Assembly (NCBI GenBank): GCA_029261065.1
Contig: JAJDCB010000030.1
Span: 260,876 to 324,875, forward strand
Source: Candidatus Omnitrophota bacterium
Lineage (GTDB): Bacteria; Omnitrophota; Gorgyraeia; Zapsychrales; Zapsychraceae
DNA: 64,000 nt
Direction: 5' to 3'
Within the stretch, counting starts at the first letter, position 1, and each line of letters opens with the position of its first letter. The notes beneath the pieces were generated by a model. It had not been told where the DNA came from. It worked only from the letters and a program-made list of their open reading frames with translations, and ran no database searches. A program made the position numbers and the translations under genes. Shown here piece by piece: positions 1 through 51,891 of this stretch.

Positions 1-132
1 AAAAGGAAATTCACTCTACTTTGATGCCTCTTTAGAGCATTATTTCGAAAATGAAAATAAAACCGTTACACGCATTATTTGCGTGTCCTCACCTGTGACT
101 CTGTAAATTCAAAAATTAAAAAAGGTATTGAT

Positions 133-1731: not shown

Positions 1732-1820
1732 ATAAGAATAAATACGTTTGTTGTTGTGTATGATAGTTTTAATGCTTAATATTTAGTGTAATCTTAAAAA
1801 ATAAACATAGGGAGAATAGT

Positions 1821-2474
1821 ATGTTAAAAATTTATGGGGTTAGTTTATCAACACCGTGCAATAAAGTGAGATTTGTAGCAAATGCATTAGATTTAGATTA
1901 TGATTTTGTCGTTGTGAATATGTCGGAAGGAAAACATAAATCGGAAGAGTATCTAGAGTTGCATCCAGCGGGTAAAGTTCCTGTTATTGATGATGAGGGG
2001 TTTGTTTTATTTGAAAGTAATGCGATTATTAAATATTTGAATGAAAAAAATAATGCTGGTTATTATCCAACAGAGCATCGACAACGAGCTATTGTTGATC
2101 AATGGTTAGATTTTTCGAGTCAACATGTGGGGGCGGCAATGAATAAGGTGTTTTTTAATCGGATACTTGCCCCTAAATTTCAAATGGAGGTAGACGCGCA
2201 ATCGTTAAAAGATGGAGAAAAATTTTTACAGAATTTTTTACCGGTGATACATACACAACTAGGAAGACATAAATATCTGGCAGGTGCTGAGTTAACTTTA
2301 GCGGATTTTAATTTATTGGCTGTTCTTGATCCTGCTGAAGTTAGTCAAATTGATTTAACTCAGTTTGATCATATAACGAGATGGCGCGACGAGCTTCGAG
2401 ATAAAGGGTTTTATAAACAGTGTTTTAATAATAGCAATTATACTGAAATGTTAATGGCGATGGCAAAAGAATAG
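1821..2474 (+). CDS. Glutathione S-transferase family protein
   Basis: N-terminal thioredoxin-like GST fold ('KVPVIDDEGFVLFESNAIIKYL'), length 217 aa, C-terminal alpha-helical GST domain. RBS 'agggaga' upstream. Confidence 0.7.
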   Translation: MLKIYGVSLSTPCNKVRFVANALDLDYDFVVVNMSEGKHKSEEYLELHPAGKVPVIDDEGFVLFESNAIIKYLNEKNNAGYYPTEHRQRAIVDQWLDFSSQHVGAAMNKVFFNRILAPKFQMEVDAQSLKDGEKFLQNFLPVIHTQLGRHKYLAGAELTLADFNLLAVLDPAEVSQIDLTQFDHITRWRDELRDKGFYKQCFNNSNYTEMLMAMAKE

Positions 2475-2514
2475 GTTTTTTACTGGATTACGTGTTTTAA
2501 AAAAGCGTGGGACT

Positions 2515-4140: not shown

Positions 4141-4322
4141 AACTATACTCCAATTTTTAAGTATGTAAGATAGTTTTTATTATAACGAAATGAGATTGCT
4201 TTAGAAAGTAAAAATGCATTTAGAATAAAAAGGCATTATATTAATTTTACTAGAAAAATTAACATTGTTTAGTATAATCATCAATAAATTAAAATGAATT
4301 TTCAAAATGGGGGAGGATTTAT

Positions 4323-5009
4323 ATGCAGAGAATTACGACATTGATGTTGATAATGTTTTTTTTATGTATGAGTGTTACAGGTTATACAGAACAAAAAGGG
4401 GGAGACCATCAGGGGGAGGCCTTGGCCGTTATGAAAGAGGCTCTTCAAAAAAGAATAAGAGTTACTGGAACGTTGGATTTGTTTGATGTTAAAGCGGATC
4501 GAGTGAGAAATTTGAGAAAAATTGAATTTAAAGAAGAGGTCGTTAATGATGGCGACCAATTGGTTGGTATGATGACATGTAAGGATATTGCGACAAATGA
4601 CATGGTTTGGATCGAAGCGGTAGTTCTTGCTAAAAAGGAAGAGGCTTTAAGTTTTAAGGAATTCCGGATCGCAAAAATTGATAAATTTGAAGATAGTAAA
4701 GCGGAGATTTTTGAGAAGAAGAATGTTACTAGGGAGGAGTTGATCACGACTATGACATCTTATGTTGAGCAAAAATCAAAATTTACGAAAAGTTTTGATT
4801 TATACGACGAAAAAGCAAGTAAACTGCGTCACTTAAAGCTAAATTCTTTTTCTGATAAAACGAGAGCCTTTGGGAGTTTGCATATTACTGAAGTTTTATT
4901 TAGTGATGTCGAAACGAATGAAACGCTAAAAATTGATATGACCGTTGAAAATAAAGCTGGTCAATTGAATGTAAAGAAAATAAAAATCAAAAGTGTTTTA
5001 CCTCAATAA
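4323..5009 (+). CDS. Hypothetical secreted protein with an internal tandem duplication
   Basis: Signal peptide 'MQRITTLMLIMFFLCMSVTG'. Two related ~90-aa halves ('LDLFDVKADRVRNLRKIEF...' and 'FDLYDEKASKLRHLKLNSF...'). GGGGAGG RBS 6 nt upstream of the ATG; TATAAT at 4273..4278. Confidence 0.6.
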   Translation: MQRITTLMLIMFFLCMSVTGYTEQKGGDHQGEALAVMKEALQKRIRVTGTLDLFDVKADRVRNLRKIEFKEEVVNDGDQLVGMMTCKDIATNDMVWIEAVVLAKKEEALSFKEFRIAKIDKFEDSKAEIFEKKNVTREELITTMTSYVEQKSKFTKSFDLYDEKASKLRHLKLNSFSDKTRAFGSLHITEVLFSDVETNETLKIDMTVENKAGQLNVKKIKIKSVLPQ

Positions 5010-5198
5010 TTTTGAAACAAGATTAAGGTATGTATAACCTTTTTAAACTTTTAGGGTGTTTCAAAATTTCTTACCTATGTGAGTGCCTAAATTATAAGAT
5101 TTTTCATAAAATATCTGTTTATCAGTTGTAATAAGATTCTGATAATGTAAAATGTGATATGTATATTACTATTAAATAATATTATATATTTTATATTT

Positions 5199-7610: not shown

Positions 7611-7624
7611 GGATTAAGTACCTC

Positions 7625-9046
7625 GTGAAAAATTATCAATTTGATTTTGAAAATTTAGAAAATACGCTTAAAGTCCTTATTGATGCTGTTGAGCAAACGG
7701 GGGACAACGTGATGGTTACTGATAAAGAGGGTAATGTTAAATATATTAATCCTGCTTTTGAGAGAAATACAGGGTTTTCCCTTGCGGAAGTTATTAACAA
7801 AAATCCAAGGTTTCTTAAGTCTGGAAAACAGGACAAAGAATATTATGAAGAGCTATGGAAAAGTATATTGAGTGGAAAAGTTTTTCGAGCGACGACAATC
7901 AACAAAAAAAAGTCGGGGGAGTTGTATTATTCTGATCAAACGGTATCGCCTGTGACCAATGAAGTTGGTGAGATTACACATTTTGTTTCTGTATGGAAGG
8001 ATATTACTGAGCGTATGGAATATCAAAATGAACTTAATGCATTAAATGATATGCTTTCTTATGAAAAATTGAAACTCGAACAAATTCTTAGCTTTGATGA
8101 AAAGATTAGTGCTCTTGAGAATATAAATGAGATGATTGATTTTATTCTTAAAAAAGTGAGTGTAATCTTAGGCTCTCAACGGTGTTCCTTGTTTTTAGTT
8201 GATGAGAATACTCATGAGATATGTATTAAGGGAGCAATTGGCATATCTGAAGACATTGTTAAGAAAATAAAGGTTAAGCAAGGTGAAGGGGTTATGGGGA
8301 TTGTTATTCAATCGGGAGAATTTTTACTTGTGGAAGATATTGATTTAGATAAGAGGATTGATCGTGAGAATAATTCTAGATATAAATTTAAATCTTTTAT
8401 GTGTGTTCCTATTAAGTTAGAAAATAAACTTATTGGTATTGTTAATGTATCTGAAAAATCTTCCCAAAAAGATGCCATTTATACGTCATTAGATTTAAAA
8501 ATTTTATTGGCTATTGTGCGGGAAGCTGCAGTAGCCATTGAAAATGCCAGAATGTATAAAGAACTAAAGTATTTAACGGTTACGGATCCATTAACGCAGT
8601 TATACAACTTTCGATATTTTACTAAATCCCTAGAGCATGAAATAAATCGCTTTAAAAGGACAGCAAGACCATTAAGCTTGTTGATGATTGATGTAGATCA
8701 TTTTAAAGCGTATAACGATAGTTTTGGGCATTTGGAAGGGGATATCTTGCTTAAGAAGTTAGCCAGTGTCTTTGTTGGTGTGAGCCGCGATATTGATTTT
8801 GTTTGCCGTTATGCGGGTGATGAATTTGCTGTGATATTGTCTGAAACTAATGTTGATGAGGCTAAACAGGTTGCACAACGTATGTTAGAAAAGGTGCGAA
8901 AGTTAAAATTAAAGCAAAAAGTTACTTTAAGTATTGGAATAGCTCAATGTACAGAGAGCATGGATCGTAGAGATTTTATTTCAAAAGCAGATCGTGCTTT
9001 ATTTGAGGCTAAACACGAGGGACGTGATCGCGTTTGTACCTTGTAA
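7625..9046 (+). CDS. PAS-GAF-GGDEF diguanylate cyclase-type protein (AGDEF active-site variant, RxxD I-site)
   Basis: GTG start 14 nt after the hybrid HK. PAS ('NTGFSLAEVINKNPRFL'), GAF, and a GGDEF domain whose signature reads 'RYAGDEF' with the I-site 'RDID' five residues upstream. Confidence 0.75.
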   Translation: MKNYQFDFENLENTLKVLIDAVEQTGDNVMVTDKEGNVKYINPAFERNTGFSLAEVINKNPRFLKSGKQDKEYYEELWKSILSGKVFRATTINKKKSGELYYSDQTVSPVTNEVGEITHFVSVWKDITERMEYQNELNALNDMLSYEKLKLEQILSFDEKISALENINEMIDFILKKVSVILGSQRCSLFLVDENTHEICIKGAIGISEDIVKKIKVKQGEGVMGIVIQSGEFLLVEDIDLDKRIDRENNSRYKFKSFMCVPIKLENKLIGIVNVSEKSSQKDAIYTSLDLKILLAIVREAAVAIENARMYKELKYLTVTDPLTQLYNFRYFTKSLEHEINRFKRTARPLSLLMIDVDHFKAYNDSFGHLEGDILLKKLASVFVGVSRDIDFVCRYAGDEFAVILSETNVDEAKQVAQRMLEKVRKLKLKQKVTLSIGIAQCTESMDRRDFISKADRALFEAKHEGRDRVCTL

Positions 9047-26892: not shown

Positions 26893-27489
26893 ATGTTAAA
26901 GAAAGTTTCGCAATATTTCATTATTAGTTGTTTTGTTTTAGGTTTATGTTTATCCTTTAATATTGGTGAAGCCAATGTTGCCGGGACACCCGCTGTTTAT
27001 AAAGTTTATTTGAAAAAACTTGCTGTTGGCAAGGTGGGTGCGGGACAGATAATATCTCTTTTTAAAGATAAGTATATTGAATTAGATATTGCATCAAACT
27101 CGTTTAATGCAGATTTAAATAATTATATAAAAAGTGTTAGCATCCCAAGCGGAAATTATGATTTTATGCATGTTGAGTATTACACAACTTATATTGTTAA
27201 GGGGATTGTGTATAAGGCTGGGAGGACATATTACACAGCAGCTGGTGGAACGAAGCATGTCGCAGGGAATATTACGGATGTGAGTAAGCTTCCAGGATAT
27301 GATGAGATGCAAGTTGAAATAGGACAGTTTGAAAATAGTTTTGAGACTGACCGTTTTCCAATTCCTATTGTTGGTAAAGGACAACCTCTTAAGTTAAGTG
27401 TAAATGTTAATCTTCAGGGTACATTAGTATTGGATGGTTCTGAGATTATTCCGGATGAGGATATAAGTTCTTCAGTTTTTCAGCTTTAA
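26893..27489 (+). CDS. Hypothetical secreted protein
   Basis: Signal peptide 'MLKKVSQYFIISCFVLGLCLSF'. No recognisable catalytic motif. Strong RBS. Confidence 0.6.
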   Translation: MLKKVSQYFIISCFVLGLCLSFNIGEANVAGTPAVYKVYLKKLAVGKVGAGQIISLFKDKYIELDIASNSFNADLNNYIKSVSIPSGNYDFMHVEYYTTYIVKGIVYKAGRTYYTAAGGTKHVAGNITDVSKLPGYDEMQVEIGQFENSFETDRFPIPIVGKGQPLKLSVNVNLQGTLVLDGSEIIPDEDISSSVFQL

Positions 27490-28375: not shown

Positions 28376-30511
28376 ATGAAGTTTAATATTATGTTTAATT
28401 TTTTATTTGTTCCTAAAAGATCTTTTCCTTATTGGTTTCTTTCCGTTATATGTCTTTGGGCCTATATAACACTATCTACAAGTAGTGTATCAGCCAATCC
28501 CATTATGGACGTTTCCTATCGCGAGATGTGGGATGTCAAACCAACTCCGATAGAAAATCAGATTAAGGCGAAACCTACTCTTAATAAAGAGAGTGAGCCT
28601 TTGAGAACTGTTTCGATGAAACGTTCTTTTAAAGATGATAATAAGCAGAAACAATATAATCAAGAAGATGTGAGTTATGAGATAGCTCCCGTTTATGTCC
28701 GTCCAAGCCTAGAATATCAAGCCTCGCCTTCTCGAAGCTGGTCTGATGAAGTTGTTGTTACAGCTAAGCGTATCCCTACTTTTTCCAGCCACAGTGCAGA
28801 AAATATAAAAGTTATTACAGAAAAAGACATAGAAAAGTTGCCTGCCAGAAATCTTGGAGAGGTCTTAAAGTATGTTCCAGGGGTGGATGTTCTCTCTACG
28901 TCGGAATTTGGCCAAGCCTCATCTGTTTCGATTAATGGATCGAAGTCAAGGCAAGTGTTGATAATGGTCGATGGTATTCCTTTTAATACACAGCTTTCTG
29001 GTCAAGCGAATCCAACGCGTATTCCCATTGGGCACATTAAGCAAATTGAAGTCATTAAGGGTGCCTCCTCAAGTGCTTGGGGGTCAAGTATTGGAGGTGT
29101 TATTAATGTTATTACCAAAGATGTTGGCGACTCTCATATTCCCGAGGGACAATTTACGACTAGTTACGGTGAGTTTGCTAGTACAACCAACAGTCTAGAT
29201 TTATCAGGAAAGGTTGGTGAGTTAGGCTATTATTTGTCAGGCAGTTTTCTTAAAACAGATGGGCCTTTCTCAGAGACAGATGTCGAAGAAACTAAATCAT
29301 TTCTAAAGCTTGCTCACCCTTTAGCTGATGCTGCGAAATTAACGGCATCATTTGGATATAGTGGGGCAAATGTGCGTTATGGCGTTACGCGATCAAATCG
29401 TATTAATTCAACGCCCTACATCTCTAGATATGGTCAGCTTGTCTTGGATGTTGATAAACCAACATTTGATTTTCAAGCGGCCTATAAGTATAACGATCAA
29501 GATATTACGACAGATATTTTTAATGCCTCAACAGGAGCCTTAGTCTCGGCAACAGTCAGTCACAATTTTCTTCAGGGTGTGGGTTTAAATGGAAGTATGG
29601 AAATCAATGAAACAGATACTTTTGTTTTAGGAGGAGATTTTGACTGGCAAACGCTTAAGTCTAATAATTTTTTAACAGAAAGTAAAAGTATAGGAACACA
29701 GGCCGCTTACAGTAATTACACGAGAAGTACAGATCGTTGGGATGTTATTCCTGGAATCAGATATGATCGAAACGAACATTTTGGCGAGCAATTTAGTCCC
29801 AGCTTTGGTGTTGTTTATCATTTTTTAAATTCTTCCGAAACATTACTCCGTGCAAAAGCCTCCCAAGCCTTCAATGCGCCACCTTTACTATGGATATTTA
29901 ACGATGATCCCACATTATTCGTTGGTCCTAGTCCTGATTTAGACGCTGAAAGTGCAAATGTTTATGAGTTAGGATTAGAGTCTGACATTTCTTCAAGGGT
30001 GCATATGAATTTAAGTTTATATCGCATGGATGTAAAGGATGCGATTGGATTGGTTTTTCAAGGAGGAGCTTTTGTTCAACGTAACTTTAGAAAATTTAGA
30101 AGACAAGGGGCCGAATTGCAACTGCAATATGATATTACTAAGGATTTATCGCTTGTGACAAGTGGAGCTTTTAACGATGTTGAAAATAGAGAGACAGGCC
30201 AGATGGTGCGGGATCAAGGTGTGGCTCGGCAAAGTTATTTGTTGGGTATGAATTATAAAAATAATAAAGGATATGGCGTTTATTTAAATGGTTATTATAA
30301 ACGGTGGAGTTCTTCTCCTTCTTTACAAGCAAACGATCGTAAATTTATATTAGATGCTAAGTTGACAAAAGAATGGGCTAATGTATTTAGACATATGGAT
30401 ATGGAGGTGTTTTTTAATATTCATAATGTTACCAATAGTAAATACTGGTCTAGCATCAATTTTCCTCTTCCCGAAAGGCACCTCGAAGGAGGGCTAACAA
30501 TTAAATTTTAA
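28376..30511 (+). CDS. TonB-dependent outer-membrane receptor
   Basis: Plug domain ('VVVTAKRIPTFSSHSAENIKVITEKDIEKLPARNLGEVLKYVPGV'). Long beta-barrel ending in terminal aromatic 'TIKF'. Confidence 0.8.
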   Translation: MKFNIMFNFLFVPKRSFPYWFLSVICLWAYITLSTSSVSANPIMDVSYREMWDVKPTPIENQIKAKPTLNKESEPLRTVSMKRSFKDDNKQKQYNQEDVSYEIAPVYVRPSLEYQASPSRSWSDEVVVTAKRIPTFSSHSAENIKVITEKDIEKLPARNLGEVLKYVPGVDVLSTSEFGQASSVSINGSKSRQVLIMVDGIPFNTQLSGQANPTRIPIGHIKQIEVIKGASSSAWGSSIGGVINVITKDVGDSHIPEGQFTTSYGEFASTTNSLDLSGKVGELGYYLSGSFLKTDGPFSETDVEETKSFLKLAHPLADAAKLTASFGYSGANVRYGVTRSNRINSTPYISRYGQLVLDVDKPTFDFQAAYKYNDQDITTDIFNASTGALVSATVSHNFLQGVGLNGSMEINETDTFVLGGDFDWQTLKSNNFLTESKSIGTQAAYSNYTRSTDRWDVIPGIRYDRNEHFGEQFSPSFGVVYHFLNSSETLLRAKASQAFNAPPLLWIFNDDPTLFVGPSPDLDAESANVYELGLESDISSRVHMNLSLYRMDVKDAIGLVFQGGAFVQRNFRKFRRQGAELQLQYDITKDLSLVTSGAFNDVENRETGQMVRDQGVARQSYLLGMNYKNNKGYGVYLNGYYKRWSSSPSLQANDRKFILDAKLTKEWANVFRHMDMEVFFNIHNVTNSKYWSSINFPLPERHLEGGLTIKF

Positions 30512-30627
30512 GAGTTAAAGTTTTTTTGTCTTTAAGTAGAAAAAAGTCATGAAATAGTACCCTTATCCTATTTTCATTTTCAAAATTTAAACTATAATTA
30601 TGGTTAATTATTTATGTGTGTAAATTA

Positions 30628-32274
30628 ATGAATAACATCGTAATAAAGGTTTTCTTTTTGGTAATGGCAATATCTTATTCCATACCTACTGCAGTATCAG
30701 CAAATCAATCCACAATCCCTACAAATCGTTTATTAAAATTCAGAGATCAAACTAATCCAAATTTACTTTCATCAGAGCCCCAGTACGGTGGAGAATTAAT
30801 TTGGGGGACAAGCAATCCTCCGTCGATCATTAATCCTATTTTAACACATATGAGTGTTTCCACGAGCCTTGTTCAGCTTATATTCAATGGCCTTGTTAAA
30901 AAAAATCCGCAAGGTGAAATAATTCCTTCGCTAGCAGAATCATGGGATATCTCTGATGATCATCTTACATATACATTTTATTTGAGAAAAAACGTCAGAT
31001 TTCATGACGGTGTCGAACTTACAGCGGAGGATGTTAAATTTACTTATGAGCTGATTGTTAATGATAAAGTAGACTCTATCTATAGATCTTCGCTAATTTC
31101 TGTTAGCCATTTTGATGTGTTAGATAAATATACAATTCGAATTGTTTTGAAAAAGGATGTGCAAAATTTTATTCATCAGCTAGTTCGTTTTATTGTACCT
31201 AAACATTTATTAGAAAATGAAGATGTTCAGAATACAAAATTTAATTATCAACCTATTGGAAGCGGACCATTTAAGTTTCAGAATTGGGATAAAATTACAA
31301 ATGAGATTGAGCTAGTCGCGAATAAAGATTATTTTGAAGGACGACCTTATTTGGATAGCATATTAATCAAGCAATACCCAAATAAGAATGCATTATGGTC
31401 GGCGTTGATGAGAAATGAGGTTGATCTTGTTCTGTTTTTAAGCAAGAAAGACTACAACATTTTAAAGGATGATCCTTCTTATAATGTTTACAGAATACCC
31501 TTGGAATTTAATTGTGCAATTATTTATAACACGCAAGATGCAATACTAAATGATTTTGAAGTTAGAAAGGCGATTGCTCATAGTATTGACAGAAAAAAAT
31601 TGATTTCAGATGTTTCGATTGAAGGTTTAGAAAGCGTGGGACCCTTACATCCCGATGCTTTAAAGGGTGATCATTTGTTAAATCTATTTGAATATAATCC
31701 TCATAAAGCAAAAGTTATTTTGATGCATAGAGGGTGGAGGGATGATAACAAAGATGGAATTCTTGAGAAAGAAGGAAGAGATTTAGAAATTAAACTTTTG
31801 GTTTATGAACAAAATGAAGATTTTAAAAAGATTGTACAAGTTTTACATCAACGATTTGCTGATGTTGGAATAAAGTTAAGTGTTCTTTTGTATAACGACA
31901 ATTTGCAATTAACTGACGAGTTTTTGCAAAAACATAAACCTCAAGCATGGATAAGATTTCTTTCTTCAAGGTTGTCTAATAAGTATGTCAATCTTGGATA
32001 TTGGTACTCTCAATCCAGTGAATTTGGACGATTGTGGAAATATGAAAATAAAAAATTTGATGAAATATATGAAAGTGGATTAATTGAAAAAGATGTGGAT
32101 GAGAGGTACAAGTTATACGAAGAGATGCACGATATCATTTACAAAGATCAACCTGCAAGTTTTTTATTTGTTCCTGTAAGTTATCATGCTGTTTCTGAAA
32201 AATTTAGAAATGTAGACGCATTGTTTAAACATAATATGGCTGTTTATACTTTATCTGAATGGTATTTGGAGTAA
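30628..32274 (+). CDS. Periplasmic solute-binding protein, family 5 (peptide/nickel/opine type; MbnE/OppA/DppA-like)
   Basis: Signal peptide 'MNNIVIKVFFLVMAISYSIPTAVSA'. SBP_bac_5 core ('LVKKNPQGEIIPSLAESWDISDDHLTYTFYLRKNVRFHDG'). No permease or ATPase genes adjacent. Confidence 0.75.
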   Translation: MNNIVIKVFFLVMAISYSIPTAVSANQSTIPTNRLLKFRDQTNPNLLSSEPQYGGELIWGTSNPPSIINPILTHMSVSTSLVQLIFNGLVKKNPQGEIIPSLAESWDISDDHLTYTFYLRKNVRFHDGVELTAEDVKFTYELIVNDKVDSIYRSSLISVSHFDVLDKYTIRIVLKKDVQNFIHQLVRFIVPKHLLENEDVQNTKFNYQPIGSGPFKFQNWDKITNEIELVANKDYFEGRPYLDSILIKQYPNKNALWSALMRNEVDLVLFLSKKDYNILKDDPSYNVYRIPLEFNCAIIYNTQDAILNDFEVRKAIAHSIDRKKLISDVSIEGLESVGPLHPDALKGDHLLNLFEYNPHKAKVILMHRGWRDDNKDGILEKEGRDLEIKLLVYEQNEDFKKIVQVLHQRFADVGIKLSVLLYNDNLQLTDEFLQKHKPQAWIRFLSSRLSNKYVNLGYWYSQSSEFGRLWKYENKKFDEIYESGLIEKDVDERYKLYEEMHDIIYKDQPASFLFVPVSYHAVSEKFRNVDALFKHNMAVYTLSEWYLE

Positions 32275-32305
32275 AGTGCTTAACTAAAAGAAAGGAGGAG
32301 AAAAA

Positions 32306-32410
32306 ATGGAAATTGTAAAATTGGGTTCAAATGATTTAAATCAACAAGATTCATTGAATTGTTGTTGGCCACCCGGGGCAGAGGTGTTAGAAACCCCATC
32401 GGATGAATAA
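32306..32410 (+). CDS. Candidate RiPP precursor peptide, 34 aa (MEIVKLGSNDLNQQDSLNCCWPPGAEVLETPSDE); absent from the ORF track
   Basis: Near-perfect RBS 'aaggaggag' 6 nt upstream of ATG 32306; in-frame stop upstream at 32285. Immediately precedes a radical SAM/SPASM enzyme. Cys-Cys-Trp-Pro-Pro-Gly core, acidic C-terminus. Confidence 0.55.
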   Translation: MEIVKLGSNDLNQQDSLNCCWPPGAEVLETPSDE

Positions 32411-32422
32411 CTTTTCATAAAT

Positions 32423-32485
32423 TTTTAGCGCACTATTTATCAATAACTGCGGCATTTAGTAAGGTTGAAAAATAGTGCGCTAAAA
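32423..32485 (+). promoter_or_regulatory. 16-bp perfect inverted repeat (TTTTAGCGCACTATTT / AAATAGTGCGCTAAAA) between the peptide gene and the radical SAM gene
   Basis: Arms at 32423..32438 and 32470..32485 with a 31-nt spacer. Either an RNA hairpin (attenuator or processing site setting the precursor:enzyme ratio) or a palindromic operator. Confidence 0.5.
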
Positions 32486-32514
32486 GTTTACGGAATAAAT
32501 AAAGGATTTTTCAT

Positions 32515-33882
32515 ATGAAGTTTTCTTGCCATACTATCATTGTCGATCATTACCCAGAAGTAAATCAGCACTTACTTTATAATACACGCACACAGTCGAT
32601 GATCAAAATTGATCAAGAACTTCGGCGTACTATTGAAGAGTATCCTAAAAATATTAAGATGATTTCAAAAAAGACTTGGGAGGATTTGAAGGCCTTACAC
32701 AATATGGGTATATTAGTTGAAAATGATGACGAAGATATGCTTAGACTTAAAAGTCATATGATGCAACTTAAGAAAAGTGTAAACGCAAAAGTTTTGCCGA
32801 TAACTATTTTAACGACATATGCCTGTAACTTTAAATGTAGCTATTGCTTTCAAGAAAGTTCACGTACCTTTGATAAGATGACAACAGAAACAAGTGACCA
32901 TGTGATTAGCTGGTTAAAATATAAAGTGAAGCAGTTTGGCTATCAAAAACTGCTCATTAATTTTTATGGGGGGGAGCCGCTTGTTAATCAGCGTACTTTA
33001 AAAGAAATTGTCAGTCAGATGAAACCTTGGTGTGAAGGAGAAGGTGTTGAGTTTAAGTTTATGTTACAAACTAATGGTTATTTGATGACTTCCCAATTGG
33101 TTGATGAATATATCGAGATGGGTTTAGATCAGGTTCGTATTTCTGTTGATGGTGTTGGGGAAGATCACGATCGGCATCGACCGTTAAGAAATGGGAAGGG
33201 GACGTTTGATCGCGTTATGAAAAATATTGTTGATAATGTTGATAAATTGAAAATTGGGATTTCTATTAGTTATGATAAAGGACAAGTTGATCATATTGAA
33301 CGATTTTTTGATTACTGCAATGATTTAGGAATAACAAAAAAATTGGGCCGATTTATCTTTTCTCCTATACATGCAACTTTGGGGCCAAAAGAGAAGCCTG
33401 AGATGATACAAAATTCAAGCTGCATGTGTAATTACGAAGATAAAAGTTTAGAGGATGCGAATCGTAAAATTAATGCTCTTATGCGTGCCAATGGGCTTGT
33501 AAGTAAAAGTGGTATGTCAACATCTACATGTCCTGTCACACGTGATAATTCTGGGATGACGATAGACCAGCATGGACATTTGTATAAATGTAACTCCATG
33601 TTAGGGCATCCGGAGCTCTCTACAGGGCATGTGAAAGATCTTATCTATAATCAAAAACATCGTGAATTTGTTAATTTGGATGTTTACAAACAATGCCCTG
33701 TTGATTGCACCTATATGCCAATGTGTAGTGGCGGGTGTCGATTATCCTCGTTTTTAAAAAACAAAAACTTTACTACACCCACCTGCCACAAGCCTTATCT
33801 TAATAAGATGGCGCCGGATTTAATCAAAAAAGATTATGAGTCCTTGATGGCAAAGGCAAAGCCTTCATTAGCAAAGAGTTGA
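32515..33882 (+). CDS. Radical SAM / SPASM-domain peptide-modifying enzyme with N-terminal RRE-like extension
   Basis: CxxxCxxC 'CNFKCSYC' begins at residue 104, after a ~95-aa N-terminal domain. C-terminal Cys-rich SPASM region ('CPVTRD', 'CNSMLGH', 'CPVDCTYMPMCSGGC'). Confidence 0.75.
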   Translation: MKFSCHTIIVDHYPEVNQHLLYNTRTQSMIKIDQELRRTIEEYPKNIKMISKKTWEDLKALHNMGILVENDDEDMLRLKSHMMQLKKSVNAKVLPITILTTYACNFKCSYCFQESSRTFDKMTTETSDHVISWLKYKVKQFGYQKLLINFYGGEPLVNQRTLKEIVSQMKPWCEGEGVEFKFMLQTNGYLMTSQLVDEYIEMGLDQVRISVDGVGEDHDRHRPLRNGKGTFDRVMKNIVDNVDKLKIGISISYDKGQVDHIERFFDYCNDLGITKKLGRFIFSPIHATLGPKEKPEMIQNSSCMCNYEDKSLEDANRKINALMRANGLVSKSGMSTSTCPVTRDNSGMTIDQHGHLYKCNSMLGHPELSTGHVKDLIYNQKHREFVNLDVYKQCPVDCTYMPMCSGGCRLSSFLKNKNFTTPTCHKPYLNKMAPDLIKKDYESLMAKAKPSLAKS

Positions 33883-34035
33883 GATTTATCGATTATGCGA
33901 GGCTATAAGCTGTTCTTACCTAGAGTCTTTTTAATTGATTAACATTTTAAGTTATAGTAGTCTATTAAAAAGTGCTCCATCTAAAGTCTTTTACCGATAT
34001 GTCCATTTCCATGGAAAAGGCCACAATACAAACAT

Positions 34036-35793
34036 ATGAGATTTAACTTCAAGCGTTTACGTTTTTTATTTCCAAATCGTATTTGGCATCAGATATTTTT
34101 TGTCCTCATTTTTATGGTGGTCATTCCGCTTGTCATTTTGGGGACGTTACTTATTACAACGAGTAAAAGAACGATTAAAACCTCAGTTTTAAGGGATTAT
34201 AAGCAAATTGCCATTCATGCGACGGGAGAAGTTGAGCAAAGTATTGAAGGGGCAAAGCATGCCTTAGAAGTAGCGGCCTCGATTTTAGGAATCCTACAGT
34301 CCGATATTTGGCGTCAAGAAACCACATTAGTTGAGTTAGCCTTACAATATCCCGCCTATCGACGTGTATCCAGCGTTGATTTAAATGGAGAAGAGCTGGC
34401 AACATCCGAGTTGGGGACTATTTTTCGTGACTGGTCCAATGAAAAAGTCTTTAAAGAGGCGCGTGAGGGAAATGCTTATATTTCTAAAGTCAGGATAGGT
34501 GCAGATCATATCCCATTATTAATTATTGCGACGCCCATTATATCGTTGGGTAAGACTAGGGGGGTGCTTATAGGAGAGCTAAATATTAGGGGAATTTGGG
34601 ATATTGTCGATAGCATCAAATTTGGCGAGACGGGGCGTGCTTATTTAATTGATCAAGAGGGACGGGTGATTGCTCATCCGGATAAAAAGATTGTGTTTCA
34701 AAATAATGCCGTTATCTCTCCTAAAGTCCCTAGCGCTGTCTTGCAGGGAAAGTCAGGGGCCATTGAACAAAAGGATGAGAATTCAAGAATGTGGTTGGTG
34801 TCATACGCTCCAGTAGAAGGGCTTAATTGGGGCTTGATCATCTCTCAATTGGAATCTGAAGCCATGAGCTTTTCAAAGGTTATGCAACATCAATCATGGT
34901 TACTCATTGGTCTAAGTTTACTGGCGACTGTATTGATAAGTTTTATCTTGGCCAGATCTATTCGTCGACCTATTCATCATCTTATAGATGGAACAAATCG
35001 TTTAGCTAAAGGAGACTATGGGTTTTCGTTTCGTATCGGACAAAGAAATGAGATCGGTAAATTACTGTTTTCGTTTAATCGAATGGCCAGAAAGCTTGAA
35101 AAGGCACAACGAATGGAGCGGTTATCTTTTGTTGGTCGTGCCGCAACAGCTATTGCCCATGAATTGAAAAATTCTCTTGTTCTTGTAAAAACGTTTGTTC
35201 AACTTTTACCAGAGAGACATCAAGAAGAAAAGTTTATTAAAGATTTTTCAAAAATAATTCCTCGAGAATTAGAAACGTGGAATGAGATGTTAAGGGGTAT
35301 TATGGAATATTCTAGAAATAAGGATTTTTCAAAAGAATTAATTGACGTTAATCAAATGATTGAAAATGTTTTTTCTTTGGCCGAGTTGCGAGTTAAACAA
35401 AAAGACATTGAGTTAAATTTAAATATGAATTCAGATATTCCTCGCGTTTTTGGAAATGAAGAGAAGCTAAAGCAAGTTGTGCTTAATTTGGTTACTAACG
35501 CTATAGATGCTACATCAACAGGGGGTTCGATTACAATGGCGACAGAATTGGTGCCTATGAAGGATGCTAGTGGATACGAGGTAGAGTTGAAAGTTATTGA
35601 TACAGGAGAAGGTATGAGCCAAGAGCAAGTTTCAAGGATTTTCGAACCATTTTTTTCTACCAAAAAAAATGGATTAGGTCTGGGGTTGGCTATAAGCCAG
35701 GATATTGTTAAGCATCATGGGGGCGTTATTCAAGTTTATTTAAACAAATTTGAAACGTCTTTTGTTGTTAGATTGCCAGTATCAACAGCTTAG
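34036..35793 (+). CDS. Sensor histidine kinase with periplasmic Cache-like domain, HAMP, HisKA, HATPase_c
   Basis: TM1 at residues ~20-42 and TM2 at ~285-305 around a ~240-aa periplasmic domain. H-box 'AHELKNSLVLV'. 'DTGEGM...GLGLGLAISQDIV'. Confidence 0.75.
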   Translation: MRFNFKRLRFLFPNRIWHQIFFVLIFMVVIPLVILGTLLITTSKRTIKTSVLRDYKQIAIHATGEVEQSIEGAKHALEVAASILGILQSDIWRQETTLVELALQYPAYRRVSSVDLNGEELATSELGTIFRDWSNEKVFKEAREGNAYISKVRIGADHIPLLIIATPIISLGKTRGVLIGELNIRGIWDIVDSIKFGETGRAYLIDQEGRVIAHPDKKIVFQNNAVISPKVPSAVLQGKSGAIEQKDENSRMWLVSYAPVEGLNWGLIISQLESEAMSFSKVMQHQSWLLIGLSLLATVLISFILARSIRRPIHHLIDGTNRLAKGDYGFSFRIGQRNEIGKLLFSFNRMARKLEKAQRMERLSFVGRAATAIAHELKNSLVLVKTFVQLLPERHQEEKFIKDFSKIIPRELETWNEMLRGIMEYSRNKDFSKELIDVNQMIENVFSLAELRVKQKDIELNLNMNSDIPRVFGNEEKLKQVVLNLVTNAIDATSTGGSITMATELVPMKDASGYEVELKVIDTGEGMSQEQVSRIFEPFFSTKKNGLGLGLAISQDIVKHHGGVIQVYLNKFETSFVVRLPVSTA

Positions 35794-35924
35794 ATAACAA
35801 ACAATTTTTGGTAGAAAAAAGTCAGCAAGTGGAACCTTGGCCCTATTTACAAATTTTGAAAAGTTTGTCATAGTATTAATCAATTCAATTAAGTTTTTTA
35901 ATTAATATTTTTATTAGGAGCAAT

Positions 35925-36656
35925 ATGCTATCTGAAACAATTGTGGTTATTGATGATGATGAGCGTGTAATTCAAAGTTTAGAACTAGCTCTTAGCGAAT
36001 ATGAAGTGGTTGGTTTTGAAAAGCCTAAAGAGGCAATGGTTTATTTACGTAAGCCGAATGAAGTAAGTCTTGTTTTATTGGATGTTATGATGCCTAAAGT
36101 TAATGGTATTAACATTCTTCAAGAAATCAAAAGTTTAAAAACAGATTTATCGGTCATAATGATTACGGCTTACGGCTCAAAAGATGTTGTCATGCAAGCG
36201 TTAAGAAATAAAGCAGATGATTTTATTGAAAAGCCTTTCGATATCAAAGAAATTAGACAAAAAATTAAAGAACATTTGAGTAAAAAATTAAAGTTTTCAA
36301 CTTATGGCGTCACGCAAAATCTTCATGTGGAGCGTATCAGACGTTTTATCGATCGAAATTACAATAATGTAAATTTAGATGAAATAGCCAGCCAAATGTG
36401 TTTAAGTCCCAAATATATTAGTCGGCTTTTTAATAGAGTTAATGACATCGATTTTCGTGATTATAAAGTGCAAGTAAAAATTAAACGTGCCAAAGATCTT
36501 CTTGTAAACACCTCTTTAAGTGTCCACGATATATCTAACGATTTGGGCTATCAAAATCCGGAATCATTTATGCGTATTTTTAAACAAAAAGTTAAACTTA
36601 CTCCTATGCAGTATCGAAAAAAGAGTTTAGTCTCTCAAAGTATAGATCATGAATAA
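35925..36656 (+). CDS. Response regulator with receiver and AraC-type HTH output
   Basis: REC ('VVIDDDERV', 'LVLLDVMMPKVNG') plus C-terminal AraC HTH ('YISRLFNRVNDIDFRDYKVQVKIKRAKDLL...PESFMRIFK'). Confidence 0.75.
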   Translation: MLSETIVVIDDDERVIQSLELALSEYEVVGFEKPKEAMVYLRKPNEVSLVLLDVMMPKVNGINILQEIKSLKTDLSVIMITAYGSKDVVMQALRNKADDFIEKPFDIKEIRQKIKEHLSKKLKFSTYGVTQNLHVERIRRFIDRNYNNVNLDEIASQMCLSPKYISRLFNRVNDIDFRDYKVQVKIKRAKDLLVNTSLSVHDISNDLGYQNPESFMRIFKQKVKLTPMQYRKKSLVSQSIDHE

Positions 36657-37047
36657 TGTTAAGATATTAATTATCGATGGACACCCTGTTTATTATCAGA
36701 AAACAGTTGGGTTTCTTAAAGGTCTAACGTTAAAAGACATTACAACGGCTAGTTCAGGCCAAGAGGGACTTAAAAAGGTTGATATGTTAAGGCCGGATCT
36801 CATCATGATGAGTGCTATGTTGCCAGATTTTGATGGCGTAGATATTTGTAGAGAAATTAGGGCTATTAAAGACTACACACCAAAAATTATTGTTCAAATA
36901 GGTGTCTTTTATGAAGAAAAGGATATAGACGATCTTTATCAAAGTGGGGCGAACAAAGTTGTTCTTCGCAAAGAAAAAGACTTCTTATCTTTAGAGAAGG
37001 CCATTGATGAGTTGTTGTTCTCAAAGTCAGGATCCCGCCAAAGTTAG
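36649..37047 (+). CDS. Atypical single-domain receiver (pseudo-receiver) lacking the phospho-acceptor Asp
   Basis: Receiver fold, but the canonical 'DLxxLD' site reads 'DLIMMSAM' (Asp replaced by Ser). Overlaps the upstream AraC-RR gene by 8 nt. Confidence 0.55.
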   Translation: MNNVKILIIDGHPVYYQKTVGFLKGLTLKDITTASSGQEGLKKVDMLRPDLIMMSAMLPDFDGVDICREIRAIKDYTPKIIVQIGVFYEEKDIDDLYQSGANKVVLRKEKDFLSLEKAIDELLFSKSGSRQS

Positions 37048-48964: not shown

Positions 48965-49498
48965 ATGAAATATGAAGGGGAAAAAAGGCTGGATCAAAAA
49001 GAGTTTGAAGAGCTTTTAATGGCAAACATGGGCTCTATGTACAACCTTGCTCAAAGGATGACGGGTAACCGTGACGATTCTTATGATTTGGTTCAAGAGG
49101 CATCATTAAGGGCTTTTCGCAATTTTGATAAATTTGAAAAGGGAACAAATTTTAAGGCATGGGTCCTAACAGTTTTGAGAAATATTTATATTAATCAATA
49201 TCGGAAAAAGGTAAAAGAGCCTTATAAAGTTAATTATGACGATTTCTCAGATTATGTGGGCGTTCCTGCCACCACAGGTCTTCAAGAGGAGATTTTTGGC
49301 GAGTCCTTGCAAAATTGTATTGATCAGTTGTCAGAAGATTTAAAATCTGTAATTACATTATTTTATGTGGATGGCCTTTCCTATAAAGAGATTGCAAAGG
49401 TAATGGACTGTCCTATAGGGACCGTTATGTCGAGGTTGTATATGGCCCGACATTTATTAAAAAAACGTTTAACGGAAGTGATGAAACATGAAGTCTAA
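48965..49498 (+). CDS. ECF-subfamily RNA polymerase sigma-70 factor
   Basis: Region 2 ('DLVQEASLRAFRNF', 'FKAWVLTVLRNIYINQYRK') and region 4 HTH ('LSYKEIAKVMDCPIGTVMSRLYMAR'). Confidence 0.85.
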   Translation: MKYEGEKRLDQKEFEELLMANMGSMYNLAQRMTGNRDDSYDLVQEASLRAFRNFDKFEKGTNFKAWVLTVLRNIYINQYRKKVKEPYKVNYDDFSDYVGVPATTGLQEEIFGESLQNCIDQLSEDLKSVITLFYVDGLSYKEIAKVMDCPIGTVMSRLYMARHLLKKRLTEVMKHEV

Positions 49499-50273
49499 AA
49501 TGACATGCCAAGATTTTAAAGATAATCTTTATAAGTTTTTAGATAAAGAGTTAACGGAGCGCCATAATTTCGATATGAAGCAACACTTGGATGCCTGCCC
49601 TTTATGTCAATTAACATATGAAAATGAAAAGAATTTTGATGGATTGGTGCGCTCGCATAGTGTTAAAGAGGATGCTCCTTTTGATTTAAGAGAAAGTGTT
49701 TTAGAAAGTATCCAGTCACAATCTAAAGTGTCCTTTTGGGAGAAATTAGGTTGGGTAAATACTTTTTTAAAACCTGTTGGTGTCGCTTTATTAGTTGTTA
49801 TCATCTCGATCACAGTTCTTTCAACGCGAACAGAATCGTTTCCATTGTTTAAAGAGTCAGTTACCAGACATCTCGATTGTCTAAAAGGTTCCTATCCTAT
49901 GGAGATTAAGACAAGCGATATAGAGGAGGTGACACGTTGGTTTGAAGGTAAATTGAATTTTGTCGTCAATGTGCCTGAGTTAGTGGGAAAAAATGTGGAA
50001 CTAAAAGGGGCAAGGTTGTGTCATCTGAAAGATAAGAAGGTTGCGCTATTAACCTATCACGTAAAGGGCAAACGTATGACGGTGTTTGTCATTGATTCGC
50101 ATAATCTAAAAATACCCTCATCAAAAGTTATCAAGGGTGAAGGTAGTAAGCTTTATGTAAATAAAGAAAAAGGATATTTAAGCGCGTTCTGTCTCAACAA
50201 GAAAACAGAAGGTGTCGGTTGTGTCTTCGTTTCAGATATGTCAGAGGAAGAGCTGCTTGGGCTTATTGGTTAA
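49488..50273 (+). CDS. Anti-sigma factor, ZAS type (HxxxCxxC), single TM, periplasmic C-terminal domain
   Basis: 'HLDACPLCQ' zinc-binding anti-sigma motif, central TM 'VGVALLVVIISITVL'. Overlaps the sigma-factor gene by 11 nt. Confidence 0.7.
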   Translation: MKSKMTCQDFKDNLYKFLDKELTERHNFDMKQHLDACPLCQLTYENEKNFDGLVRSHSVKEDAPFDLRESVLESIQSQSKVSFWEKLGWVNTFLKPVGVALLVVIISITVLSTRTESFPLFKESVTRHLDCLKGSYPMEIKTSDIEEVTRWFEGKLNFVVNVPELVGKNVELKGARLCHLKDKKVALLTYHVKGKRMTVFVIDSHNLKIPSSKVIKGEGSKLYVNKEKGYLSAFCLNKKTEGVGCVFVSDMSEEELLGLIG

Positions 50274-51215
50274 ATGGTTATGAATATTAAAAAAACAGGA
50301 ACTATAGTTATTGCTACGTTTTTGTTTGTGAGTTCTTTTCAAGCCTCTAAGGGAAGTTGTTCTGATTTTGATTTCTCTAATGCTCAAGTGGATCAAAATG
50401 CATTTAAGTCTGGTGGCCCACCTAAAGATGGTATTCCTGCCTTAACGAATCCAGAGTTTATTAAACAAAGTGAAGCTAAATTTTTAGATGATGATGAAAG
50501 GGTTGTTGGCGTTGTGATCAATGGAATTGCGCGAGCTTACCCTTTATCCATTTTAAATTGGCATGAAATTGTTAATGATGTCATTGATGAAACTCCTGTT
50601 GCTATAACGTGGTGTCCTTTAACAAAAAGTGCCGTGGTCTTTGATCGCAATGTGAATGGACAAACATTGGAGTTTGGTGTCTCAGGGTTGTTGTATAACA
50701 GCAATGTTGTTATGTATGATCGCAATTACGATGGGTTGTGGTCCCAAATGAAGATGGGAGGGTTAACAGGGAAAGGGGCTACAGCAGAATTAAAAAACTT
50801 ACCTTCACAAGTAACGACGTGGAAGCAATGGCGGCAAGAATATCCTAACAGTCTTGTTTTATCAAGAAAAACAGGGCATAGGAGAGACTATCAATCGAAT
50901 CCTTATGAAGGATATCACAATACCTCTCAAGTCATGTTTCCTTTACCGGATATTGATGATAGGGTCCCTCCTAAGAGTCTTGTTGTTGGAATACGATTAA
51001 AAGATAAGGCCAAGGCATATCCTTTAGATATGTTACAAAGGATAACGCAGCCCATTAATGATCAGGTGGCCGGTGTTGACATCACCATATTTCCCGCTTT
51101 AGATGAAAGTGTTATTGTTCAAGATACTCATGGAAATCGTTTAGCTTCTGTTGTAGCCTATTGGTTTGCATGGAGTGGTTTTAATCAAGATTCGTTATTG
51201 TATAAGGAGAAATAA
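50274..51215 (+). CDS. Secreted DUF3179-like protein
   Basis: Signal peptide, 'GGPPKDGIPALTNPEF' motif. Starts immediately after the anti-sigma stop. Confidence 0.4.
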   Translation: MVMNIKKTGTIVIATFLFVSSFQASKGSCSDFDFSNAQVDQNAFKSGGPPKDGIPALTNPEFIKQSEAKFLDDDERVVGVVINGIARAYPLSILNWHEIVNDVIDETPVAITWCPLTKSAVVFDRNVNGQTLEFGVSGLLYNSNVVMYDRNYDGLWSQMKMGGLTGKGATAELKNLPSQVTTWKQWRQEYPNSLVLSRKTGHRRDYQSNPYEGYHNTSQVMFPLPDIDDRVPPKSLVVGIRLKDKAKAYPLDMLQRITQPINDQVAGVDITIFPALDESVIVQDTHGNRLASVVAYWFAWSGFNQDSLLYKEK

Positions 51216-51219
51216 TTTA

Positions 51220-51891
51220 ATGCAGCTATCAGGAAATGCCTTTGATTATGTTATCGCTTTTTGGAGCGGTGTTTTGGTTAGTTTTACTCCTTGTGTTTAT
51301 CCAGTGATGCCTATTACGGCAAGCTTTATTGCGGGAGTTAACACCAAGGGAACAAAATTGATGGGGTTTGTTATTTCATTGATTTATGTTTTTGGTATTG
51401 CCCTGACTTATTGTGCTTTGGCAGTTTTTGCGGCTTTAACAGGAAAGATTTTTGGCCAAATTCAAAATTCACCTCTTGTTTTTTCTATCGTTGCTATTTT
51501 CTTATTCTTTTTTTCATTAGTTATGTTTGATATTATTCAATTACCTTCCCTTGGCATTTCGTTTCACGACAAAATTAAGAAGAAAAATATTTGGAGTGTC
51601 ATTTTATTTGGCATGGCCTCTGGTTTAGTTGTTGGCCCATGCACGGCACCTATTTTAGGAACATTATTGGTTTATGTAGGAGCTAAACAAAATGTTTTAC
51701 ATGGAGCTAGTTTATTGTTTGCTTTTTCATATGGCGTAGGGGCGTCATTGATTTTGGTTGGAACATTTAGTGGGATGCTCAGCAATATGCCTAAATCAGG
51801 CACGTGGTTAATAAGAATTAAGCAATTATGTGGATTGATTCTTATGGGAGCATCTTTCTATTATGTGGGAAAAGCCTTTGGATTAATTTAA
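51220..51891 (+). CDS. ccdA: CcdA/DsbD-type thiol-disulfide transporter (cytochrome c biogenesis transmembrane region)
   Basis: RBS 'aaggaga' then ATG 51220. Conserved Cys-containing TM helices ('FTPCVYPVMPI', 'GPCTAPILG'). Confidence 0.7.
   Translation: MQLSGNAFDYVIAFWSGVLVSFTPCVYPVMPITASFIAGVNTKGTKLMGFVISLIYVFGIALTYCALAVFAALTGKIFGQIQNSPLVFSIVAIFLFFFSLVMFDIIQLPSLGISFHDKIKKKNIWSVILFGMASGLVVGPCTAPILGTLLVYVGAKQNVLHGASLLFAFSYGVGASLILVGTFSGMLSNMPKSGTWLIRIKQLCGLILMGASFYYVGKAFGLI

Follow-up and report, generated by a model that had tools for sequence, protein, structure and literature searches.

Background

In methanobactin operons, a Cys-containing ribosomal precursor is encoded together with a TonB-dependent receptor (TBDR), MbnT, and an OppA/AppA-like periplasmic solute-binding protein (SBP), MbnE, which has no known permease partner and for which no inner-membrane step is known (PMC7558416). 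Here we analyse a gene cassette with a comparable set of parts, located in a 64,000-nucleotide stretch of a Candidatus Omnitrophota bacterium genome (contig JAJDCB010000030.1; the whole stretch is referred to as the window, and positions are those of the window unless a locus is named). Four consecutive genes of this cassette, encoding a TBDR, a family-5 SBP (SBP5), a 34-aa open reading frame (ORF) and a radical S-adenosylmethionine (rSAM) enzyme, had previously been singled out from the letters alone. This sequence-only reading took them for a cassette producing a peptide that is made on the ribosome and modified after translation (RiPP), stressed the parallel to methanobactin, and proposed a previously undescribed metallophore or signalling-peptide system. 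Our results place the locus on a divergent Omnitrophota branch of the so-called geopeptide superfamily and lead us, tentatively, to interpret it as a circuit that makes and senses its own modified peptide.

Several described systems resemble the cassette in part. Methanobactin operons are regulated by a sigma/anti-sigma pair, and the window cassette carries a two-component system instead. The modifying enzymes differ as well (an rSAM/SPASM enzyme in the window, MbnB and MbnC in methanobactin operons), the exporter, where present, is of the ATP-binding cassette (ABC) type, the SBP is not closest to MbnE, and the peptide core is not conserved as that of a chelator would be. As for the enzyme, the nearest systems are CteB/SCIFF, the PapB ranthipeptides, CefB and TIGR04463, which share with it the order RiPP recognition element (RRE)–rSAM–SPASM, a Cys-rich substrate motif and an N-terminal leader logic; unlike them, the window enzyme stays below every family cutoff and its substrate has one invariant Cys. 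We know of no thioether rSAM/SPASM system tied to a TBDR, an SBP and a Cache kinase, and literature searches found none either.

On the sensing side, the SBP-dependent kinases (CBP–ChiS of Vibrio, LuxP–LuxQ, TorT–TorS) likewise have an SBP encoded beside the sensor kinase, and it forms the ligand-binding half of the sensor. CBP is an SBP_bac_5 protein, and the periplasmic domain of ChiS is dCache-like (PMC8050422). In these systems the ligand is a small metabolite or an oligosaccharide instead of a RiPP made by the cell itself, entry is by porins rather than by a TBDR, and CBP also feeds an ABC transporter. Finally, the NisK/NisR system of nisin and the Agr system of Gram-positive bacteria combine a modified peptide gene, a leaky terminator, an exporter and a two-component system which activates the peptide's own promoter. 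The corresponding parts of the window locus are a hairpin, an exporter in relatives, and an operator 5' of the peptide and response regulator units; what sets it apart is the diderm setting, the TBDR import step and an SBP standing between signal and kinase.

The cassette and its conservation

All four genes were confirmed on the + strand at 28376-33882, and the conserved unit was found to exceed this block, extending over 28376-37047. Its order is TBDR – SBP5 – peptide – hairpin – rSAM – (ABC exporter) – dCache/HAMP kinase – receiver-AraC regulator – pseudo-receiver, and comprises the following features in the window:

28376..30511, + strand: TonB-dependent outer-membrane receptor, 711 aa (Pfam Plug and TonB_dep_Rec_b-barrel)
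30616..32274, + strand: family-5 SBP, 552 aa, with Sec signal peptide (PF00496 at 255 bits)
32306..32410, + strand: precursor peptide gene, 34 aa, MEIVKLGSNDLNQQDSLNCCWPPGAEVLETPSDE (ORF conserved across related loci)
32413..32495, + strand: RNA hairpin between peptide and enzyme genes, 31-nt arms, 87% complementary
32515..33882, + strand: radical SAM/SPASM peptide maturase, 455 aa (Pfam Radical_SAM and Fer4_12)
34036..35793, + strand: sensor histidine kinase with transmembrane segment, periplasmic dCache_1, transmembrane segment, HAMP, HisKA and HATPase (Pfam, motifs)
35925..36656, + strand: response regulator, receiver plus AraC-type helix-turn-helix (Pfam Response_reg, HTH_18, HTH_AraC)
36649..37047, + strand: pseudo-receiver, 132 aa (Pfam Response_reg), the start overlapping the response regulator gene by 8 nt

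When the window proteins were compared by tblastn with all fetched loci, the same gene order was recovered in relatives, within unrelated genomic neighbourhoods. The counts given here rest on about 35 loci picked via the enzyme or the SBP and do not represent a census. Among 27 distinct related loci of the cassette type, collected by the species scan, the metagenome scan and context look-ups, 26 contained the peptide gene beside the enzyme, so the Cys-Cys-Trp peptide noted earlier is a conserved component. The sole exception, which also has no SBP gene, is a hydrothermal-vent contig (L014, 1-3987), where the TBDR is followed directly by an operator motif and the rSAM gene, with neither SBP nor peptide between, and then by an ABC exporter. 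SBP5 was present in 19 of 20 informative loci (rSAM-selected loci only) and a kinase orthologue lay downstream in 21/21 related loci whose contig extended far enough. The TBDR was found in 21 of 22 informative loci, in 19 of them at the same position (42-57% identity) and in two downstream of the kinase. TBDR and SBP are thus co-inherited with the peptide/enzyme pair, and the same holds for the Cache kinase and AraC regulator.

An ABC exporter was encoded in 18 of 24 informative loci. It is a fused ABC_membrane and ABC_tran protein of 545-590 aa, without a C39 peptidase domain, and its gene lies between those of the maturase and the kinase:

L002, 11371-13080; also L004, L005, L008, L009, L013-L020, L096, L097, L099-L102: ABC exporter

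Two loci deviate in other ways. In L100 (8001-15040), SBP5, peptide, rSAM, ABC exporter and kinase genes were present with no TBDR within 8 kb on either side, and a PP-binding (acyl carrier-like) gene was located upstream. In L009 (8416-11349), SBP and rSAM genes are split into two or three reading frames, indicative either of a decaying cassette or of long-read assembly errors.

The precursor peptide and its hairpin

The unannotated 34-aa ORF is a real gene and not a chance ORF. Its predicted product consists of a leader (MEIVKLG…SL), a core (NCCWPPG) and a variable acidic tail, and a ribosome-binding site lies in front of the ORF:

32290..32299, + strand: Shine-Dalgarno sequence GAAAGGAGGA of the peptide gene, 6 nt upstream of the ORF

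The site recurs as GAAAGGAGG in 12 of the 13 close relatives. At codon positions 1, 2 and 3, pairwise nucleotide diversity amounted to 0.29, 0.18 and 0.59 over 23 aligned codons, a pattern which points to purifying selection on the protein. When one genome per species was scanned with the enzyme, nine loci came up, all from Omnitrophota or PVC-group metagenome-assembled genomes (MAGs) and with 52-62% enzyme identity. In each of the nine, a small ORF that shares the leader and has an invariant CCWPP lies just 5' of the enzyme gene. In an alignment of 32 peptides from the whole superfamily, three of them from true geopeptide loci, only G7 (the Gly ending the leader strand) and C19 (the first Cys) were invariant, and the residues past CCWPPG form hypervariable tails. 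Seven peptides, a genuine geopeptide among them, gave no match to NCBIfam models even at permissive E-values (10; 1).

A gap of 31 nt, in which there is no terminator, separates the peptide gene from the SBP gene in front of it, from which it follows that the two genes are probably co-transcribed. On its other side, the hairpin at 32413..32495 has a minimum free energy of -35.5 kcal/mol (z = -8.0), and none of 200 shuffled sequences reached this stability. In 24/24 loci examined, a strong hairpin occupied the same position, frequently with a T-run behind it, the hairpin sequence not being conserved; the hairpin and the intergenic regions had no Rfam match at E ≤ 1. A scan of the window for intrinsic terminators did not flag the hairpin, because its loop is over the limit of the scan and no T-run follows it. 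Probably, this element acts as a leaky terminator or stabilises the transcript. Its placement is as expected for a precursor transcribed in excess over its enzyme.

The maturase

The cysteine motifs of the enzyme were compared in 14 homologues with 38-65% identity:

32824-32847, + strand: CxxxCxxC motif of the radical SAM core, C104/C108/C111, invariant in the 14 homologues
Within the gene at 32515..33882: SPASM cysteines C303, C339, C359, C394, C398, C404, C408 and C424, invariant in the alignment

The SPASM pattern, CX14GX4C … CX3CX5CX3C … C, fits two auxiliary clusters. The AlphaFold model of the protein (pLDDT 87.7) divides into an N-terminal domain, a radical SAM core and a SPASM domain. 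The first of these (aa 1-~90) is RRE-like in the AF2 model: aa 1-87 form three strands and then three helices, at pLDDT ~90. Foldseek returned CteB (5wgg) as the top full-length match, with a TM-score of 0.67-0.69, and the full-length alignments to the RRE-containing enzymes CteB, TigE and SuiB span 470-483 columns. The structural match to the anaerobic sulfatase maturase anSME was confined to the core and SPASM parts, without the N-terminal domain, and PqqE ranked 28th in the fold search. Taking the model and the fold match together, we regard the protein as a peptide maturase of the RRE, radical SAM and SPASM type, which bears out its earlier description as a RiPP enzyme.

Among NCBIfam models, TIGR04280 scored best with 254.9 bits, below its cutoff of 400. 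The next models were CefB, TIGR04463, PapB and SCIFF, all of them Cys-targeting peptide maturases, and again the scores stayed under the family cutoffs (CefB 176 vs 600, PapB (NF047865) 146.5 vs 340, SCIFF (TIGR03974) 113 vs 425). By sequence, the enzyme belongs to the thioether-forming neighbourhood of rSAM/SPASM enzymes. Two other assignments were considered for it and rejected: the anaerobic sulfatase maturases (TIGR03942), with 73.9 bits against a cutoff of 349, and the cofactor-biosynthesis clades (NirJ, AhbC, MoaA, PqqE, mycofactocin), also excluded by their scores.

The outer-membrane receptor and the binding protein

In the receptor, a signal peptide and a linker that is not conserved precede a TonB-box-like element, the plug and the barrel:

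28745-28765, + strand: TonB-box-like DEVVVTA (aa 124-130), at which conservation with orthologues starts exactly

It scored below every NCBIfam equivalog cutoff, and its best subfamily matches were receptors for haem, B12 and siderophores.

The SBP similarly fell below all NCBIfam cutoffs (Opp4A 187 vs 650). Among solved structures, AppA (1xoc) and NikZ are closest to it; MbnE (5ICQ) was not among its 60 best PDB sequence matches nor among the 50 best fold matches, which does not agree with the earlier view of it as an MbnE-like protein. The earlier remark that the SBP has no cognate ABC permease or ATPase was borne out more widely, as neither the cassette, nor the 48 window ORFs scanned, nor any of the related loci that had Pfam context yielded one. 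Neither TonB/ExbBD nor Opp/Dpp permeases were encoded by these 48 ORFs. The best 120 SBP homologues (41-52% identity) all come from Omnitrophota or the PVC group where named, and many share contigs with enzyme matches; six of seven sampled contexts of SBP homologues were full or near-full cassettes. The SBP is the fastest-evolving large protein of the cassette, with 42-45% identity as compared with 55-62% for the rSAM enzyme.

In every clade examined, the SBP gene is linked to a kinase gene, provided that the contig is long enough to show it, and the linkage of rSAM, SBP5 and histidine kinase genes is kept in distant clades although the order is shuffled. One PVC-group MAG (L098, 8001-11976) contains only SBP5, a dCache kinase and a receiver, without TBDR, peptide, enzyme or exporter. 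Its left flank (SMC/GGDEF) is shared with L102, which has the full cassette, and its SBP and kinase are 55-60% identical to their cassette-borne counterparts. Judging from these sequences, L098 looks like a derivative that only listens.

The two-component system and its operator

In the kinase, the H-box AHELKN lies at aa 374. The HisKA domain reached a Pfam score of 21.5, under the cutoff of 26.9; HATPase_c and HAMP were clear. By eye, the dCache domain partially matches the dCache amino-acid-sensor motif. The response regulator has D53 as its phospho-acceptor and is 45-55% identical in relatives. The third protein had been called a pseudo-receiver, rightly so: in an alignment of seven orthologues with two canonical receivers, 7/7 orthologues carry Ser55 (in the window at nt 36811) where the phospho-acceptor Asp would be. 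The acidic DD pair reads DG in the window, and DA or DG in 7/7 orthologues, and an IDAHPVY motif is conserved. This protein could be a connector or a Ser-phosphorylated module.

Two copies of a bipartite motif were detected in the window:

30536..30575, + strand: operator GTAGAAAAAAGTCA-N18-CTATTTTC, in the promoter region of the SBP-peptide unit
35811..35850, + strand: second operator copy GTAGAAAAAAGTCA-N18-CTATTTAC, in the promoter region of the regulator genes

The first copy overlaps a -35-like TTTTCA (30571-30576), followed by a -10 element TATAAT ending at 30598, and the second overlaps a -35-like TTTACA (35846-35851), followed by CATAGT ending at 35874. In both copies it is the second box that overlaps the -35-like hexamer, at an equal distance from the -10-like hexamer. 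In the form GTAGAAAAAAGTCA-N18-CTATTT[AT]C, the motif occurs exactly twice in the 64-kb window, where zero occurrences are expected by chance. The peptide unit and the regulator's own promoter share the operator. Five loci besides the window carry it: with the 18-nt spacer, it was present at the SBP-unit intergenic position in L010, L011, L014 and L099, and 5' of the response regulator gene in L006 and L011. With two mismatches allowed, 2.35 Mb of related loci yielded nine matches, the two in the window included, of which eight lay at the same two intergenic positions of CCWPP-clade cassettes, the spacer always being 18 nt. Exact or near-exact copies were not found in L002, L003, L004 and L007, hence at that stringency the operator is not universal.

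Loci of another clade, the CCF clade, have a related motif, GGTAGAAAnAGGACAG-N17-GCCCATTTAC, 5' of the response regulator gene. In this CCF clade, the SBP–peptide unit is preceded by a sigma-54-type promoter (TGGYAYG-N4-TTGCW) with upstream TGCAC repeats:

L015 8175, L016 8176, L017 903, L018 5537, L027 806, L096 7921 and L102 7965: sigma-54-type promoters of the CCF clade

In L096 and L102, a sigma-54-type response regulator is encoded immediately 5' of the TBDR. The operator in one clade and the sigma-54 promoter in the other indicate that the peptide unit is activator-dependent in both.

Relation to the geopeptide superfamily

TIGR04280, the best-scoring family for the window enzyme, is the geopeptide maturase family. 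In NCBIfam it is a curated 'hypothetical equivalog' defined in silico, and literature searches on geopeptides and on rSAM–TBDR–SBP–kinase systems returned no relevant paper and no experimentally characterised member. The metagenome scan revealed a gradient of relatives between this family and the window: the enzyme of L036 passes TIGR04280 with 544 bits, and those of intermediate clades reach 267-331 bits. A search started from the L036 enzyme retrieved about 2000 proteins at E<1e-40, several of which, from Nitrospirota and Dissulfurispiraceae, carry the NCBI name 'geopeptide radical SAM maturase'.

The four true geopeptide loci inspected (L036, L093-L095) are all built alike: the TBDR gene is followed by that of a short CC peptide (e.g. 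MKNRIVVLKKGVEKKQIVEGLCCIGAYVPYLWG) and by the rSAM gene, after which come genes for a PF04392 SBP, an sCache_4/HAMP kinase and a regulator of GerE or sigma-54 type. The SBP gene overlaps the sCache_4 kinase gene by 4-8 nt. Besides the enzyme family, they have in common with the window locus the leader pattern of the peptide (a hydrophobic strand followed by K-K-G, with an invariant CC about 10-12 residues later in geopeptide members), the upstream TBDR, an orphan periplasmic SBP, a Cache-type kinase with response regulator, and a terminator hairpin past the peptide. The differences concern nearly every accessory family. The window enzyme reaches 255 bits against the required 400, its SBP is PF00496 instead of PF04392, the kinase has dCache_1 instead of sCache_4, and the regulator is AraC-type instead of GerE- or sigma-54-type. 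SBP, kinase and regulator genes lie directly downstream of rSAM in geopeptide members, whereas in the window the SBP gene is upstream of the peptide. The core CCWPPG with its acidic tail, and the ABC exporter of most window-type relatives, are further differences; the window type occurs in Omnitrophota, and geopeptides in Nitrospirota and other phyla.

Between these extremes, the intermediate clades keep SBP5 and kinase in shuffled order (SBP–peptide–rSAM–ABC–kinase–TBDR in L020, SBP–peptide–rSAM–kinase in L022 and L052). In a third clade (L025, L026, L028, L031, L032, L055), the precursor gene comes just downstream of the rSAM gene, and the Trp-rich core (LWCWWYIHR) contains one Cys only, as in MKLQVVKKGSKGDKKILWCWWYIHR and MKIKIIKKGVKKENIKMNWCEWSYW. 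SBP5 follows downstream in L026, and SBP5 together with the kinase in L028, L031 and L055.

An architecture shared across swapped families identifies the window locus, at the level of sequence, as a divergent Omnitrophota branch of the geopeptide superfamily. What this superfamily keeps throughout is the peptide with its enzyme, a receptor in the outer membrane, an orphan periplasmic SBP and a Cache kinase; the protein families that fill the last roles can be exchanged. The proposal that the system is previously undescribed has to be narrowed accordingly: it is a distant relative of a curated in-silico family with the same architecture, and what stands is that the window clade fails the family cutoff and employs other accessory families. 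The rSAM/SPASM RiPP kind and the nearest family were already known. The interesting part is the logic of TBDR, SBP and Cache kinase arranged around a self-made peptide.

A proposed circuit sensing its own peptide

Our preferred interpretation, to which we would assign a probability of about 45%, is that the locus constitutes a self-contained, autoinducer-like circuit which makes and senses its own modified peptide. The RRE of the maturase would bind the leader, and the enzyme would form a cross-link from the first, invariant Cys, and probably from the second too, to a residue close by; such Cys-centred chemistry on a C-[C/W]-aromatic motif may be new. The product would leave the cell via the ABC exporter which, being missing from the window cassette, must in that case be encoded elsewhere in this genome. 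Too large for porins, it would re-enter the periplasm via the dedicated TBDR, and the SBP would capture it and report to the dCache kinase, in the manner of CBP–ChiS and LuxP–LuxQ. The kinase would then phosphorylate the AraC-type regulator, which would activate the promoter of the SBP-peptide(-enzyme) unit as well as its own promoter, and the outcome would be positive feedback. Going further, it is possible rather than probable that such loci represent a new class of cell-to-cell or self-signalling in diderms, in which export, re-uptake by a TBDR, hand-over by the SBP to a Cache kinase and switching on of the own operon are combined in thousands of loci.

Several observations weigh against a self-sensing circuit. 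The exporter is missing from the window cassette and from five other loci; the gap between enzyme and kinase genes in the window is only 153 nt, and across the window only generic ABC ATPase domains were found, belonging to an ABC-2 pair and an Mla system. No locus encodes a leader protease. L098 and L100, with no TBDR nearby, show that the SBP–kinase pair has no strict need of the receptor. Secretion of the peptide, its binding by TBDR and SBP, and contact between SBP and kinase are suggested by gene linkage, and the AraC-type regulator is a putative binder of the operator. The relatives of the SBP include nickel- and metallophore-binding proteins (NikZ, NikA and the staphylopine-binding CntA). 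TonB-dependent receptors classically import metal chelates or nutrients, and to our knowledge TonB-powered uptake of a pure signal is without established precedent.

The last points lead to the most serious rival, a methanobactin-like metallophore, in which the secreted CC peptide would chelate metal and be re-imported by the TBDR, the SBP would hold the complex, and the two-component system would sense it and up-regulate the cassette. At the level of parts the parallel to methanobactin drawn earlier stands, a TBDR and an orphan OppA/AppA-like SBP beside a Cys-containing RiPP precursor being exactly the methanobactin transport arrangement. The vicinal Cys and acidic tail of the window clade, the likeness of the TBDR to haem, B12 and siderophore receptors and the SBP relatives just named all point in the same direction, and siderophores, too, show uptake-triggered induction. 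However, the relatives of the maturase use up Cys thiols in thioether links, by which the obvious metal ligands would be gone. With one Cys and one Gly invariant superfamily-wide, a Trp-rich clade with a single Cys and hypervariable residues after CCWPPG, the peptides are hard to square with conserved metal chelation. MbnE is outside the closest SBP structures, and neither MbnB (DUF692) or MbnC domains nor an MbnA-type precursor were found in the cassette or its relatives. Signalling by a self-made peptide is preferred for what the SBP does: it never occurs with a permease and yet is kinase-linked, its family has been swapped between clades while the coupling to the kinase persisted, and the SBP–kinase pair survives without biosynthetic genes, as in L098. 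The poor conservation of the core apart from one Cys, the single-Cys variants, the hypervariable tails and the fast evolution of the SBP favour signalling as well, as does the fact that family-5 SBPs are known co-sensors for Cache-type receptors, SBP_bac_5 proteins signalling to them in CBP–ChiS, AibA–TlpB and DppA–Tap (PMC8050422). We therefore favour a role of the SBP as a sensor partner rather than an importer, the coupling being seen as gene linkage. Of the two options offered by the sequence-only reading, signalling fits better; a metallophore served by an import module is unlikely and keeps real weight all the same.

Two further explanations appear less plausible. TBDR, SBP and kinase might sense an unrelated cue, such as a foreign peptide or a nutrient, the peptide being an exported output, e.g. 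an antimicrobial, as many rSAM/SPASM RiPPs are. The exporter in 18 of the 24 loci, the activator-dependent promoters in front of the peptide unit and the SBP–kinase pairs occurring without biosynthetic genes would suit a regulated effector of this kind. We nevertheless consider it improbable: there is no conserved immunity gene, the peptide and SBP genes are probably co-transcribed, and TBDR, SBP and kinase track the peptide/enzyme pair over three clades and a swap of SBP family, which is most easily explained if the peptide is their ligand. Alternatively, the peptide could be a cofactor precursor or another cytoplasmic product, similar to pyrroloquinoline quinone (PQQ) or mycofactocin, both made by SPASM enzymes, with the transport and sensing genes serving for salvage. 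The window cassette has no exporter, and the NCBIfam model of PqqU, a TBDR for PQQ uptake, weakly matches the window TBDR. Given the low PqqE- and mycofactocin-type scores of the enzyme and the 28th rank of PqqE by fold, the cassette without conserved tailoring or client enzymes, the exporter encoded by most relatives, and a hypervariable core unlike that of a cofactor precursor, such an intracellular role is very improbable.

Surroundings of the cassette in the window

GC content in the window is some 32-41%. Each of its 2-kb bins has a positive GC skew, and of the ORFs with at least 100 aa only about six are not on the + strand; the window probably lies on the leading strand of one replichore. 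Other features seen in it are:

79-9046: signalling block, with HisKA_7TM kinases at 79-1731 (+ strand) and 2515-4140 (- strand), a GAF hybrid kinase with two receivers at 5154-7610 and a PAS-GAF-GGDEF protein at 7625-9046
26893-27489: 198-aa predicted secreted protein, two genes 5' of the cassette, no Pfam or NCBIfam match
48965-51891: extracytoplasmic function (ECF) sigma factor, zf-HC2 anti-sigma factor, DUF3179 protein and DsbD-type membrane protein in a row

The 198-aa protein is not conserved beside the cassette in relatives. The genes at 48965-51891 may form an envelope-redox stress module.

Implications

Peptide pheromones sensed by kinases are textbook knowledge in Gram-positive bacteria and, as far as we know, nearly absent from the Gram-negative literature, the outer membrane blocking molecules of such sizes. 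If the cassette is indeed a circuit sensing its own peptide, it would show how diderms get peptide signals past the outer membrane, and one principle, in which SBP, kinase and regulator can each be exchanged, would be at work across Omnitrophota, Nitrospirota and other phyla. Whatever the function, the parts are small and lend themselves to heterologous expression, and the operator motif allows a reporter assay. Should the product turn out to be a metallophore instead, it would be the first chalkophore-like peptide made by a radical SAM enzyme. As a self-sensed signal, it would provide a first function for the large geopeptide family and a candidate ligand for the orphan SBP and dCache kinase in Omnitrophota, a phylum with almost no experimental biology.

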